A DNA stretch of 64,000 nucleotides from Escherichia coli (GCF_050320075.1 NZ_CP190019.1); one strand, 5' to 3'. Numbered from the stretch's first letter, positions 39,001 through 45,000 are shown. Program-made: the numbers.

Positions 39001-42000
39001 TGGCTGAGGCGATCCACTTGCGCTACCGCTCACTGATCAGATCGAACTTGAACTCGACGAGCAGCCAACCATCAGGCCGAGCGTGATCGCCAAAAAAAAC
39101 GGATCATGCGAAATCCTTCGTTGAGTTTGGCGCGGGTTTTAGCAAATCAGCTGGCCCGCGATCCGGTTGAGAGTGATCCGAAGCGGTCCTTGACGACCGG
39201 CACAAATCGGCCGATTCTGTTGAAAAAGTAGCTTTAGCGGCAGCCTGCCGATCAGGTGTGCCTGCTGTCGAAGTGGCTGCAAGCCACTTCAAGTTGCCTT
39301 CCGGCGTTTCACTGAGCGTCCTTGCTCAGGTTTAAGGGTTAATTTGAGGGTTTCTGCTCGTAGCAGGCATACCTATCCCGTCAGCGGTGGCCCTTGAGGC
39401 AAAAGCTTGGCCATGCGGCGCAGGTTCTGCACCATCGCAGCCAAGGTGAATTCGTCAGTGGCACCCGTTAGGCCACGCAGTCGTAAACGGTCGAGTTTCA
39501 TGATCCGTTTGAGGTGGGCGAAAAGCATCTCCACCTTCTTTCGTTCGCAGCGAGAGACGAGGTACTCCGGTGTCTTGGCGATGCGTCGAGCCACGTCGCG
39601 GGCAGCCTCATGGATGCTGCGGACGATCTTCCGATTCGGCGTGTTGGGGCAGCATTTCGCTTTCAACGGGCAGGTGGCGCAGTCGGTTTGGCTGGAGCGG
39701 TAAATGACGGTTTTGGCCTTAGTTACCCGCGACCTTTGCTGGGTGAAGGCGCGCCATTCACTGCGTAGCGGTTTGCCGGCTGGGCAGCGATATTCATTGG
39801 CGTCCTGACTCCAGTGAAAGTCGTTACTGGAGAGGCTGTCGTCCTTGCGCTCGGTCTTGTCCCACACCGGCACATGCGGTTCGATGTCCTTTTCTTCGAC
39901 CATCCAGGCCAGCATCGGGGCGGTGCCATAAGCGGTATCGCCGATAAGGCGTTCCGGTGTGAGATCGAACTGCGCCTCGACACGCTCGACCATCGTCCTA
40001 GTCGAATCGACTTCGGCGGTACGGTGCGCCGGGGTAGCTTCCACGTCCATGATCACACCGTGCTCAGTGTCGATCAGGTAATTCGTGGAGTAGGCAAAAA
40101 AGGCCGGGCCACCTGGCGCTGCTGTCCAACGGGACTGAGGATCAGTGAGCGAAATTTTCTTGGGAAGAGCCTCAGCCAGCGCCTCTTCATCAAGGGCTTC
40201 GAGGTACTCGCGCACTGCGCGGCTGCTGAGCTTTGGATCGTTCCAATCGACCTCATCTCCCGCCACCCCACGTTGCCGGCTGGCATCCGCCTTAATGATG
40301 CTGGCGTCGACGGCGAAACCTTCACCCTTGACTAGGCCGGCTGCCATGCAGCGCCGCAGCACCTCATTGAATAACCAGCGGAATAGATCGCTGTCACGAA
40401 AACGCCCATGGCGATTCTTCGAGAAGGTCGAGTGATTGGGGACTTCGTCTTCCAGACCCAACCGGCAGAACCAGCGATAGGCCAGGTTCAGGTGCACCTC
40501 TTCGCACAATCGCCGCTCGGAACGAATGCCATAGCAAGTAGCCGACGACCAGCATGCGCACCATCAACTCCGGGTCAATCGAGGGACGCCCGATGGGGCT
40601 ATAGAAATCTGCCAGGTAGGCACGTAGATCACTGAGATCCAAGCACTGGTCGATGCTGCGCAGGAGATGTTGGGCCGGGACGTGATCTTCCAGATTGAAC
40701 GAGTAGAACAGGCGCTGCTGTCCTCCCGGTAACTGTCCCATCATGCTGTTCGCCCCCACGCTCGCTGACAAAGCAATTTTGCCAACGGCATGGGGAGGCC
40801 GCTACTTTTTCAACAGAATCGGCCGCACACAGCCATTCGGCTCAACAGAACCCTGCCTTTACCCCACCAAACTCCGGAAACTCGCCCGGTAGTCCGTCGG
40901 CTTGAGATGCACATGTTGGCTGAGGTCGCCGGGTAGCGTGAACAGGCGCGGACCGTCCCGAAACTGGAACACGCGATACAGATGGAATTGATCGCCCGCC
41001 TCCTTGGAGAATTCGAGTTCGTTGTGGCTGACCAAGAAAGACGAGCCTACCCCGCCATTGGTGGTTTTCACCTCGATGAAGCGCTCATGGGCGTCCTCTT
41101 CGAACGACAGGATGTCGAACCCCGCACCGTCTCCCTGGGTGTCGGACACCCAATCCAGCCGCTGAAAAAGCTCTGGGTGGCCGAGCTCGGTCAGGCGTTG
41201 CTGTTCGTAGCCAATCACCCACTGCTCCCCTGCCCGGCCCAGCTTGCGGTTGGCTTCATCGCGAGCGGCATAATCGAACTTTCGCGGTAGGCGTTGCCGT
41301 AGAGATGCCGGGGTACGCACAAGCACTTCACGGGCGGGTGGTTCTACCAAAGCCGCTCGGTAGGTTTTGTCACCCGGAAGTTTTACCTCCTCCAGGGCAT
41401 CGACAAGAGCGCCGACCGTCTGCTGATGTTCCAGAACGTAGGCGTGTACGGATTTACGCAGCAGCAGTTGGCTGTTGCCGCGTGGCTTGTAGCCGTTGAT
41501 ATAGGGCAGGCCCAGGGCATCGAGTACGGCGCTAATGTTCTGGTGCTTGAGCTCGACTGAAGACTTGCTGCGACCGTTCAGCAGTTGGCGCAGTGCCTGG
41601 TTGTGCTCGGACTTGTTGTACGGCTCCCCAGCCGCCTCGGCACGCAGCATGTCGAAATAGTCTTCGACCGTGGCCAGGACCTCTTCTTCGGACCAGTCTT
41701 CGCCGATGCGAATGATGCGAAACCCGAGCCGCGTCAGCGCCGGAACGACGGTCGCCTCGCCACCGGAGAAGCTGTCAGCAGTGAGCGGGCCCTGCTCGGG
41801 AAATTGCTTGCCGAAGGCCACACCGGCGATGGCCTTGGAATCGCAATCGGTGCCGGTCTTCGGATCACGTACCAGGAAGTCGCGGGACTTGCCGTAGCCG
41901 TGGCGCGCCAGGAATTTCGTGCGGCCCAGTTGCACGAACTCATCGATGGCAGCCTGCACGGCGGCGGGGCTTCGAAGCTGGGAGAGTTGAGACACAGGGT

Positions 42001-45000
42001 CCTTCCTTACTGTCATGGTGTGCCGGGAACCGCCGAGCCACGAGATTATGAGTAGCCCCTGAACAGAAACGTCACGATAATAGCCGTGAACGCCACCAGG
42101 CCCATTAAATCCCTTGCGTATTTGCAGCCCGTGCTGTCCAAACCTGTACCAGGTCCGATCAACACGCTCCAACCATTGAGGTACGAAAACACCGCCTGAC
42201 CGAACAAAAAATGCGTGATAGCCGCCGCAGCCATGACGCCGGAATCGTCAGACAGGCTGTAGCTGTTGACCATTGCCCTGTACGCCTGCATCTGAAATGG
42301 CTATTGCCCTGATGGGAGCCGGCTTTTCAGCCACCGACACCAGCGATGCCGTCAATATTCTTTACCCGATAACCATGACCGTACAAGCTAACAAGGCCTG
42401 GCAAGCCAGCGGACTTAAAAAGTCTTTTTTTCTACCATCCCACAAAAAAGTTCGTGGTGGAGAAAAGATAAGCTATGCAAGGCTTTAGGAGACGTGGTTT
42501 TTCAGGATGACGAAGAACGATTCGGCGCTAGGTGCAACATAGGTGCATCGCACGAGCGCTAGGAACGGCGAAAAAAGGCGGACGTGGCGAAATCGGTAGA
42601 CGCAGCAGACTTTAAAATTGGAGTGCCCGCGGGGAAATCCGCGGAGTAGAACCGCTCAAAGTCGGGGAACGCTAACGGGCAATACCCTAAGCCAATCCCG
42701 AGCCAAGCCCCTTCGGGGGAAGGTGTAGAGACTGGACGGGCGGCGCCTAAAGCCTTCGGGCAATGGCGAAGGGACAGTCCAGACCACGAACGTCATCAGA
42801 CGGCGGCGAAAGTCGAGGTGGTACGAAAATCTGCTTCTCTGTGAGAGTACGGGTTCGAGTCCCGTCGTCCGCACCACAAAGCCAAACATCCCTGCGATGA
42901 TCGACCTCTGGGCGTTTGGTCGTGAGCCCGCCACCCTCGCGCTACGCTTTGCGCAGGCGTCGAAGGCGATCAGGTGCGCCCATCGATTCCGTCGAGCACC
43001 ATCGCTGCGAGTTCATCGCTGGTGTGTGCACCACTATCGAGAACACGGGTTGTGCATGGAAGCCGTTCCCTTGCGGCCAAGCATCGGGCGACATTCGCTA
43101 ATCGCCACTCTCGAATCTCCGCATTTCGATTCGGGTCAGGATGCATGGTCTGGTTCGCGATCCGGTGACGCAATAGGTCCTCGTTGAGCGTCAGAAAGAT
43201 GTGCAGCAGCTGATCGTCGATCCGCCTTACCCCGTCGAGTATCTCAGTCAGATAGTCCGGGTGCACGAGCGTCATTGGGATGATGATGTCCTGCGAGTAA
43301 TTCCTTCGAATCTCCCTGACCGCCGCGATCGTAAGTCCCCTCCACAAGGGGAGATCCTGATAGTCTCCGCTCGCTGGCATGGGGACCGTTTCTTTCACCA
43401 CGAACCCGATTTCCTCGGGGTCAAAGATCAGCGATTTGGAACGCCGATCGCGCAGCCGCTTAGCGAGCGTCGTCTTTCCGGCGCCGAAAGGTCCGTTGAT
43501 CCAGATTATCATTGTCGACGGCCTCTAACCTGAAGGCTCGCAAGAGCGCTCGACGGCCTCGTGCGGAGGCACGATCGGAGTGGTTCCGAAATGCTTCTCA
43601 AGATAGGTGACGCCGAACGTCACGATGTCCTGCGCGTCGAACAGGTAGCACTGAGCAAAGCCCACGACACCTTCTCGATGGCGACCGAGCTTCACGTAAG
43701 CATTTGCTATAGTTTCAACCGCATCCGGCTTTCCTTCGATAGCAAAGCAATCGAGAATGCCGTTTGAATCGTAATCCGATGCCGTTTTCCAGGCGACTTC
43801 ACCGTCTCTTCCAAGCATCGGCATCTCATACGTCACCCACCGTTTGTTGGGGATATCGGCAACCGCCTCGGCGTAGTGCAATGCGGTAACGGAGTTTAGC
43901 GGCGCACCCAACAGCAGGGCCTTCCCGCCAAGGCGAACGAACCGCTCGACGGGCGATCCTTCCCCCAAGGCGTGACCGAGTTCGTGAGGCTCCGTCAGCG
44001 TTTCAGCCAGCGGACCAACCGCGACCATCGATGCATCGGGGTGCGCGCTGCGCCGCGCGCCGGGGGCTTGAACCAGAAATTGATTCAGCAGGCCGAACCC
44101 ACGGTAAGTCCCGGCTGTTGCGGGATCGAACGGCAGCCAGGTACGGCGGGCTTCGTCATCCAGCCGAGCGCCATTCAGAGTCTCCTCGTAGGGTGATCGG
44201 TCCCACGACGCGTATCCCATCACAGTGCCAGTCGGCCCAACCGCGGAGCGTAACGCGGCAACGACCGTCTCCGCTCCTCCTTCGACCGGACCAATCGCTT
44301 TAAGTGAGGCATGCACCATCAAGAGGTCACCGGTTTGGACTCCGAGTTTTTGAAGCGCCTCCGTTATTGCCTTCCGCGTATGCATCGCGATATCTCCTCT
44401 AAACTGCAAAACACTATACGCTGATGAATCCCCTAATGATTTTGGTAAAAATCATTAAGTTAAGGTGGATACACATCTTGTCATATGATCAAATGGTTTC
44501 GCGAAAAATCAATAATCAGACAACAAGATGTGCGAACTCGATATTTTACACGACTCTCTTTACCAATTCTGCCCCGAATTACACTTAAAACGACTCAACA
44601 GCTTAACGTTGGCTTGCCACGCATTACTTGACTGTAAAACTCTCACTCTTACCGAACTTGGCCGTAACCTGCCAACCAAAGCGAGAACAAAACATAACAT
44701 CAAACGAATCGACCGATTGTTAGGTAATCGTCACCTCCACAAAGAGCGACTCGCTGTATACCGTTGGCATGCTAGCTTTATCTGTTCGGGCAATACGATG
44801 CCCATTGTACTTGTTGACTGGTCTGATATCCGTGAGCAAAAACGGCTTATGGTATTGCGAGCTTCAGTCGCACTACACGGTCGTTCTGTTACTCTTTATG
44901 AGAAAGCGTTCCCGCTTTCAGAGCAATGTTCAAAGAAAGCTCATGACCAATTTCTAGCCGACCTTGCGAGCATTCTACCGAGTAACACCACACCGCTCAT

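Follow-up and report, generated by a model that had tools for sequence, protein, structure and literature searches.

A stretch of 64,000 nucleotides of Escherichia coli DNA (GCF_050320075.1, NZ_CP190019.1; hereafter, the window) carries, in the midst of a plasmid-borne antibiotic-resistance module, a gene for a predicted nuclease of 378 amino acids (aa). We consider it likely, with a probability of around 0.6, that its product is a defence-type, metal-dependent DNA endonuclease of the PDC-S36-type family, and that on the plasmid the gene is a hitch-hiking fragment within the resistance module. From its domains and relatives we infer the nuclease activity, the role in defence, the cooperation with a helicase and any effect of the orphan copy in Enterobacteria. 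The DNA-binding domains would place the nuclease on foreign DNA; a helicase, where present, would supply ATP-driven translocation or unwinding, and the PD-(D/E)xK site formed by E257, D294, E308 and K310 would then cut the DNA. The plasmid fragment would spread as cargo of the resistance module, because the insertion sequence (IS) ISCfr1 and the tmrB/aac(3)-IId segment bound it, one at each end. The gene and its parts are located in the window as follows.

40859..41995, minus strand: nuclease coding sequence (CDS), WP_000080860.1 or orf1182, with the stop codon at 40859-40861 (supported by the list of open reading frames (ORFs), RefSeq, the start of the orthologues and dN/dS, the ratio of nonsynonymous to synonymous substitution rates)
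42000..42008, minus strand: Shine-Dalgarno-like AAGGAAGGA, five bases upstream of the GTG (read from the sequence)
41708..41995, minus strand: ScoMcrA_N 'head' domain (PF26345), aa 1-96, with a DSKAIAGVA motif common to ScoMcrA
41381..41698, minus strand: homeodomain/Myb-like module and two further helices, aa 100-205 (helices 103-121, 128-136 and 144-160)
40916..41272, minus strand: NOV_C/DUF3883 PD-(D/E)xK domain, aa 242-360 (Pfam match and catalytic codons)
41225-41227, 41114-41116, 41072-41074 and 41066-41068, minus strand: catalytic codons E257, D294, E308 and K310, respectively (checked against the sequence)

The gene lies within an open frame of 437 aa with a TTG start (40859..42172, minus strand), which contains GDGAGFDILSFEEDAHERFIEVKTT; an earlier note on this DNA had proposed instead a GTG start, preceded by a strong ribosome-binding site, and a shorter product of about 378 aa. 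Our data agree with this proposal. The CDS of 1137 bp starts with the GTG at 41995-41993, and AAGGAAGGA is indeed found at 42008-42000; RefSeq annotates, on an identical plasmid stretch, the same 1137-bp CDS (WP_000080860.1, "DUF3883 domain-containing protein"), and homologues are mostly 378-380 aa long. Likewise, the proteins from 16 related loci begin with MSQLSQLRSP at the exact position of the GTG (ATG in 12 and GTG in 4), several of them with stop codons just upstream of the start and with a AAGGAAGGA-like site, and purine-rich sites of this kind occupy the same place in L002, L006, L007, L009 and L013 (L numbers designate individual related loci throughout). Comparisons of the window gene with seven orthologues yielded dN/dS values of 0.06-0.09, which argue that the sequence is truly coding and that purifying selection acts on it within its family; the gene is also intact, the window copy retaining the reading frame and all the invariant residues.

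The deduced product comprises a ScoMcrA-type head, a homeodomain-like three-helix module and a C-terminal NOV_C/DUF3883 PD-(D/E)xK domain; NCBIfam has no model for the protein. The nuclease domain had already been proposed in the earlier note, with a Pfam search as the check, and this search retrieved a significant match to NOV_C (PF13020, formerly DUF3883; i-Evalue 2e-21, 76.3 bits) over nearly the full length of the model (positions 1-90 of 91). Steczkiewicz et al. 2012 (PMC3424549) counted NOV_C/DUF3883 among the families of the PD-(D/E)xK superfamily. The D...E-x-K arrangement (GFD...EVK) that had been read in the sequence is real: an alignment of 89 sequences, with identities down to 34%, shows no variation at residues E257, D294, E308 and K310, and the loss of catalytic residues, considered beforehand as a reason to discard the assignment, was not observed, with all four intact in the window copy. 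In a confident structure model (pLDDT, the predicted local distance difference test, of 93.4), the domain shows the alpha-beta-beta-beta-alpha-beta core fold of the superfamily, with the E located in helix 1, the D where strand 2 begins and (D/E)xK in strand 3. The same four residues bear on the idea that the protein is a catalytically dead DNA-binding regulator, in which the homeodomain-like module does the work and the nuclease fold is a scaffold. A homeodomain-like DNA-binding fold is present, and Steczkiewicz et al. noted families of PD-(D/E)xK proteins fused to helix-turn-helix domains as possible regulators (PMC3424549); however, the strict conservation of all four catalytic residues in 89 diverse sequences is not what a scaffold-only role would predict, and we find this idea hardly credible.

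The N-terminal region, which the note had described as an unrecognised domain joined to the nuclease, is certainly joined to it but resolves into two recognisable parts. The head is similar to ScoMcrA_N (PF26345) both in sequence and in fold, and was recognised in a search of the PDB with a profile of 14 orthologues, whereas a search with the single protein produced only a match to ScoMcrA with E=0.4. With a profile of 89 sequences the N-terminal domain was lost and the PDB search found nothing useful; the first 100 aa, searched by themselves against a database, retrieved only short fragments, which say nothing about other architectures containing the head. The three-helix module proper (aa ~100-160) has a homeodomain-like or Myb-like fold, superposable on homeodomains, and the region of aa 100-205 is the N-terminal half of the PDC-S36 core, with invariant residues W101, Y113 and N153.

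The PADLOC model for PDC-S36 matches the protein with E=6.5e-107 and 355 bits, from aa 105 to 380 of a 385-aa version (residues 98-375 of the 378-aa protein) and over profile positions 4-279 of 280. An exhaustive search retrieved 8,116 representative relatives, many of them cores of ~280 aa and others with different N-terminal extensions; NOV_C was present in 50 of 50 long members of the family, three of which (3/50) carry an EVE domain in place of the head. The family is built on a constant core of ~280 aa (the three-helix module plus the nuclease), which occurs alone or with varied N-terminal domains. We also considered that the nuclease gene could be a phage gene, and rejected this because the phage collection contained only distant matches, in seven records and limited to the C-terminal domain.

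The domain composition could also fit a stand-alone type IV enzyme, in which NOV_C cuts with no partner after recognition of a modified base or backbone by the head or by the three-helix module. The head is common to the phosphorothioate-dependent ScoMcrA, and there is a weak match to the PADLOC mREase_IV model. DUF3883 is the catalytic domain in YenY4I, a tested enzyme dependent on modified cytosine, and in McaZI-like DUF3427-DUF3883 fusions (Lutz et al. 2019, PMC6765204). The EVE domains that replace the head in a few long members belong to the PUA superfamily, whose domains were treated as modification sensors by Lutz et al. (PMC6765204). Additionally, no cognate methyltransferase gene adjoins the nuclease gene in the window, where its neighbours are ISCfr1, orf228, orf192 and tmrB, and none was found paired with the nuclease among the flanking genes scanned in related loci, an organization that differs from that of type II restriction-modification (R-M) systems. 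Nevertheless, ScoMcrA reads modified DNA by means of its SBD and SRA-like domains (PMC6224610), and no SBD, SRA or HNH domain was found here with Pfam or PADLOC; the gene is stably carried by hosts whose methylomes differ greatly (E. coli, Klebsiella, Salmonella, Acinetobacter and Pseudomonas), and its closest relatives are in operons with a helicase. A type IV enzyme acting alone is, hence, an unlikely explanation.

We favour a defence nuclease that, in its lineage of origin, is paired with a helicase. The closest DNA is from Stutzerimonas stutzeri V81 and S. nitrititolerans GL14, with 92% identity over window positions 40821..42272 and protein identities of 94-95%. In these two strains, and in eight other loci, the nuclease gene is located just downstream of, and on the same strand as, a gene for a helicase of 1,596-1,736 aa, with a RecQ-family part and a UvrD-family part (~1,700 aa in all). 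The gaps between both genes are of 2-387 nt where they share the strand (L002-4, L006, L007, L009, L010 and L081), whereas the orientation is divergent in L024 and L033 (a Variovorax and a Comamonadaceae locus), and in a metagenome-assembled genome from Bacteroidia a core-only nuclease lies 30 nt downstream of the helicase. The pairing recurs from Pseudomonadales to Burkholderiales and Bacteroidia, with the helicase adjacent or nearby in 13 of the 79 related loci. In the source lineage (Stutzerimonas/Pseudomonas), gene order suggests that the nuclease gene closes a small operon headed by the helicase and situated in defence-rich mobile regions.

The plasmid copy has retained only a part of this arrangement, as deduced from the following features.

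40821..42272, minus strand: Stutzerimonas-like segment, containing the nuclease gene and 277 bp upstream, without the helicase gene (blastn against related loci)
42046..42273, minus strand: orf228, a 75-aa remnant of a small hydrophobic ORF of 100 aa (translations compared; hypothetical protein in RefSeq; named in PMC7096625)

Homology to Stutzerimonas ends at window position 42272, leaving 134 nt up to the stop codon of the helicase in the coordinates of L006, where the helicase ends at 9590 and the homology to the window begins at 9724. A search by tblastn with the Stutzerimonas helicase found no helicase anywhere in the window, and neither a nucleoside triphosphatase (NTPase) nor a helicase lies beside the window gene; a nuclease-NTPase organization exists only among its relatives, in the 13 loci with a helicase and in L025 with an ATPase. 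The 100-aa hydrophobic ORF sits between the helicase and the nuclease genes in L006 and L007 (S. stutzeri V81 and S. nitrititolerans; L007:9648-9950) and is absent in L002; orf228 corresponds to its 3' three quarters, and its 5' truncation coincides exactly with the homology breakpoint, where a new start was created. The plasmid copy is a fragment cut away from its helicase partner, with a truncated small ORF and an intact nuclease gene.

Several relatives reside among defence genes. The earlier note had stated that nucleases of this type recur in defence islands, and this is correct for the relatives, since orthologues are found directly beside genes of Zorya II (L008), Avs2 (L009), Azaca (L010 and L016), a type I restriction endonuclease (L011) and Druantia III DruE (L015), but not for the window itself, which is an antibiotic-resistance mosaic. 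The neighbours in L025 are a DrmD-like protein and a TmtA-N-like ATPase. In this locus (Caldimonas tepidiphila, L025:4494-8788), the relative of the nuclease follows, with an overlap of one base, a protein of 1,050 aa that resembles the N-terminal ATPase of TmtA, and a DrmD-like SNF2 helicase lies upstream of the ATPase-nuclease pair, in an arrangement that resembles Tiamat split into two genes.

The neighbourhoods are also relevant for a housekeeping role in repair or recombination instead of immunity, for instance that of a structure-specific resolvase that cooperates with helicases of the RecQ/UvrD type. The partner joins RecQ and UvrD, which are classic families of repair helicases, and core-only relatives in Bradyrhizobium (~280 aa; L054, L055, L057, L064, L066 and L071) share a conserved neighbourhood with typA/bipA, a flavin adenine dinucleotide (FAD) oxidoreductase and a gene like those of short-chain dehydrogenases/reductases (SDR), which looks like a housekeeping, vertically inherited region with no defence island. 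Yet orthologues are patchily distributed, beside integrases, IS elements and defence systems, and the family was first noticed through members located within BREX, DISARM or type I R-M systems (bioRxiv 10.1101/2024.01.29.577857), so that we consider a repair nuclease quite improbable.

The stretch with the nuclease gene was found in 1,289 of 72,556 plasmid records, from Escherichia, Klebsiella, Salmonella, Acinetobacter, Pseudomonas and others, the copies being at least 99% identical in 1,241 of the 1,289. It also appeared in 599 of 5,426 complete E. coli genomes (about 11%), in 544 plasmid and 82 chromosomal places. Of 60 E. coli records sampled evenly, 25 (about 40%) had an allele clipped by IS26, WP_014837927.1 (375 aa); in it, the gene ends at window position 40894 and IS26 replaces the last 11 codons (40862-40894; locus L086:3106-4974), including the conserved YRA tail.

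Several of these observations weigh against a defence nuclease that is active and of use to its present hosts. The helicase is missing from 66 of the 79 related loci, and cooperation with it is thus not general; the Bradyrhizobium neighbourhood indicates that defence may not be the only role of the family; and PDC-S36 is one of 145 untested PADLOC candidates, which were chosen as genes embedded in BREX, DISARM or type I R-M (bioRxiv 10.1101/2024.01.29.577857). The head domain has no assigned function even in ScoMcrA (PMC6224610). In the plasmids, the near-identity of the copies reflects recent spread and not selection, and the frequent loss of the last 11 codons to IS26 argues that the integrity of the gene is not maintained in Enterobacteria. 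Furthermore, a promoter scan found no sigma-70-like promoter upstream of or around the nuclease gene, whose expression on the plasmid is thus unproven. Frequent clipping, the lost helicase and the lack of a recognisable promoter together argue that the gene travels with the resistance genes, without selection for it in Enterobacteria.

These data lead to the strongest of the alternatives, namely that the gene is inert and merely carried along. Its product, an orphaned effector, would depend on the helicase, and perhaps on the small ORF, and would be idle in Enterobacteria, where the gene would be kept only by the recent spread of the aac(3)-IId module. This overlaps with our preferred explanation and differs from it on present-day activity. 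It agrees with the absence of the helicase from the window and the truncation of the small ORF at the breakpoint, as well as with the clipped allele and the missing promoter-like site, and the divergence among plasmid copies is too small to show selection. On the other hand, the reading frame and all the invariant residues are intact in the window copy, and autonomous activity is plausible because many relatives lack the helicase, including close ones (L005, L008, L011 and L012), and the ~280-aa cores stand alone. Likewise, read-through transcription is possible, as an inference, because the nuclease gene, aac(3)-IId and tmrB share one orientation. Complete inactivity is thus a possibility to keep in mind, although we give it clearly less weight than to a hitch-hiking defence nuclease.

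A more ambitious version of the preferred explanation is that the RecQ+UvrD helicase and the nuclease form an undescribed defence system of Stutzerimonas/Pseudomonas, some Burkholderiales and Bacteroidia, sometimes with the small membrane ORF in between, and that the orphan still acts alone, altering the susceptibility of clinical strains to phages or plasmids; we regard this version as doubtful. What is possibly a new element is the helicase-nuclease pairing, as documented by gene neighbourhood. The novelty of the gene itself is low, because it already has a RefSeq annotation and the name orf1182 in papers on resistance, and because its family had already been flagged as a candidate. We found no functional study in the literature on PDC-S36, on orf1182/WP_000080860 or on Tiamat/TmtA.

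Comparison with the closest known systems locates the protein nearest to PDC-S36, defined through guilt-by-embedding by Payne et al. (bioRxiv 10.1101/2024.01.29.577857), with which it shares the same three-helix plus NOV_C core and whose model it matches almost end to end. The PDC-S36 model is, however, a single-gene core of ~280 aa, to which the window protein adds a ScoMcrA_N head of ~96 aa, and its definition includes no helicase, whereas close relatives of the window protein are paired with the RecQ+UvrD helicase. YenY4I and the McaZI-like enzymes likewise combine a C-terminal DUF3883 nuclease with N-terminal DNA-reading domains and have no cognate methyltransferase, and RecQ-like helicases or NTPases were already suggested as their possible partners (PMC6765204); their readers are PUA-superfamily and DUF3427 domains, unlike the ScoMcrA_N head and homeodomain-like module found here, and dependence on modification, a feature of YenY4I, is only a rival reading for the window protein. 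With ScoMcrA (PDB 5zmm; PMC6224610), only the head is common, because the SBD, SRA-like and HNH domains of that enzyme are absent.

Two other systems are related through the nuclease region alone, in weaker PADLOC matches. The models for PD-T4-1 match aa 240-380 against profile positions 231-377 of 383 (E=1.8e-18); PD-T4-1, an E. coli system from a functional selection that is described at figure level only in its original paper, has been treated as a nuclease-NTPase system (bioRxiv 10.1101/2025.07.10.664194). Its PD-(D/E)xK nuclease acts together with an NTPase, while the window has no NTPase partner and the N-terminal two thirds of the proteins differ. The NOV_C region also aligns with the C-terminal end of Tiamat TmtA (PDLC03964-72; E=2e-14), but TmtA is a single ATPase-nuclease fusion of 1,300-1,700 aa and the window protein has 378 aa and no ATPase. 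Finally, orf1182 of PMC7096625 is the same DNA, although the ORF was called there with 1182 bp, in contrast to the 1137-bp CDS described here, and no function was given.

In the window, the genes are arranged as aac(3)-IId, tmrB, orf192, orf228, nuclease gene and ISCfr1, an order published as the module aacC2-tmrB-orf192-orf228-orf1182-ISCfr1 (PMC7096625). The IS next to the gene, as had been noticed previously, is the following.

39208..40825, minus strand: ISCfr1 (IS1182 family), 1618 bp, with perfect terminal inverted repeats of 25 bp (RefSeq 'IS1182-like element ISCfr1 family transposase')

ISCfr1 is immediately downstream of the nuclease gene, with 33 nt between the end of the IS and the stop codon; it bounds the segment and is no part of the nuclease system. 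Indeed, we rejected the nuclease as an accessory gene of ISCfr1, as this IS adjoins the gene in only one of the 79 related loci (L002). In this locus, from the chromosome of Stutzerimonas kunmingensis (L002:11140-12770), an ISCfr1-like element that is ~91-98% identical by 200-nt window occupies the position directly after the nuclease orthologue, as in the plasmids, although the gene itself is only ~84% identical. A small hairpin follows the stop codon of the nuclease gene (window 40835-40820), and the common position of ISCfr1 suggests either a preferred insertion site or an old shared junction. The transposase of the window copy is split over two frames (residues 1-69 and residues 42-456), as opposed to a single ORF of 456 aa in L002, and this could be due to a frameshift or indicate a pseudogene.

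The earlier note had also placed the gene near a tRNA-intron locus, and this was borne out only in part. A tRNA-like 5' half (17.5 bits), with CUUUAAAA in the region of the anticodon loop, runs straight into sequence resembling a group I intron (42578-42795, plus strand), and the intron model RF00028 matches at 42603-42795 (plus strand; E=7.6e-8 on a short stretch); but the score of 36.8 bits is below the gathering score of 50, and ARAGORN calls no tRNA in the window. Any link of the nuclease to this sequence was rejected because the latter is not part of the Stutzerimonas-derived segment and has the opposite strand to that of the nuclease and resistance genes. Pieces of other mobile elements surround the module (44466-44535, minus strand; 44528-45322, plus strand; 46890-47039, plus strand; and 37046-38350, minus strand): an IS10 RNA-OUT (98.8 bits), accompanied by a truncated ORF for a transposase of the IS10 type, a domain of a group II intron (119.7 bits with RF02012) and an ORF for a TniA-like transposase.

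As it stands, this is an annotated gene with no assigned function inside a well-described resistance module. If the nuclease is active, it would be a candidate immune gene that is spreading together with gentamicin resistance, and it could affect the outcome of phage therapy or the competition between plasmids. For the PDC-S36 family, the analysis provides three handles, which are a likely helicase partner, a map of its domains and a set of catalytic residues to mutate.

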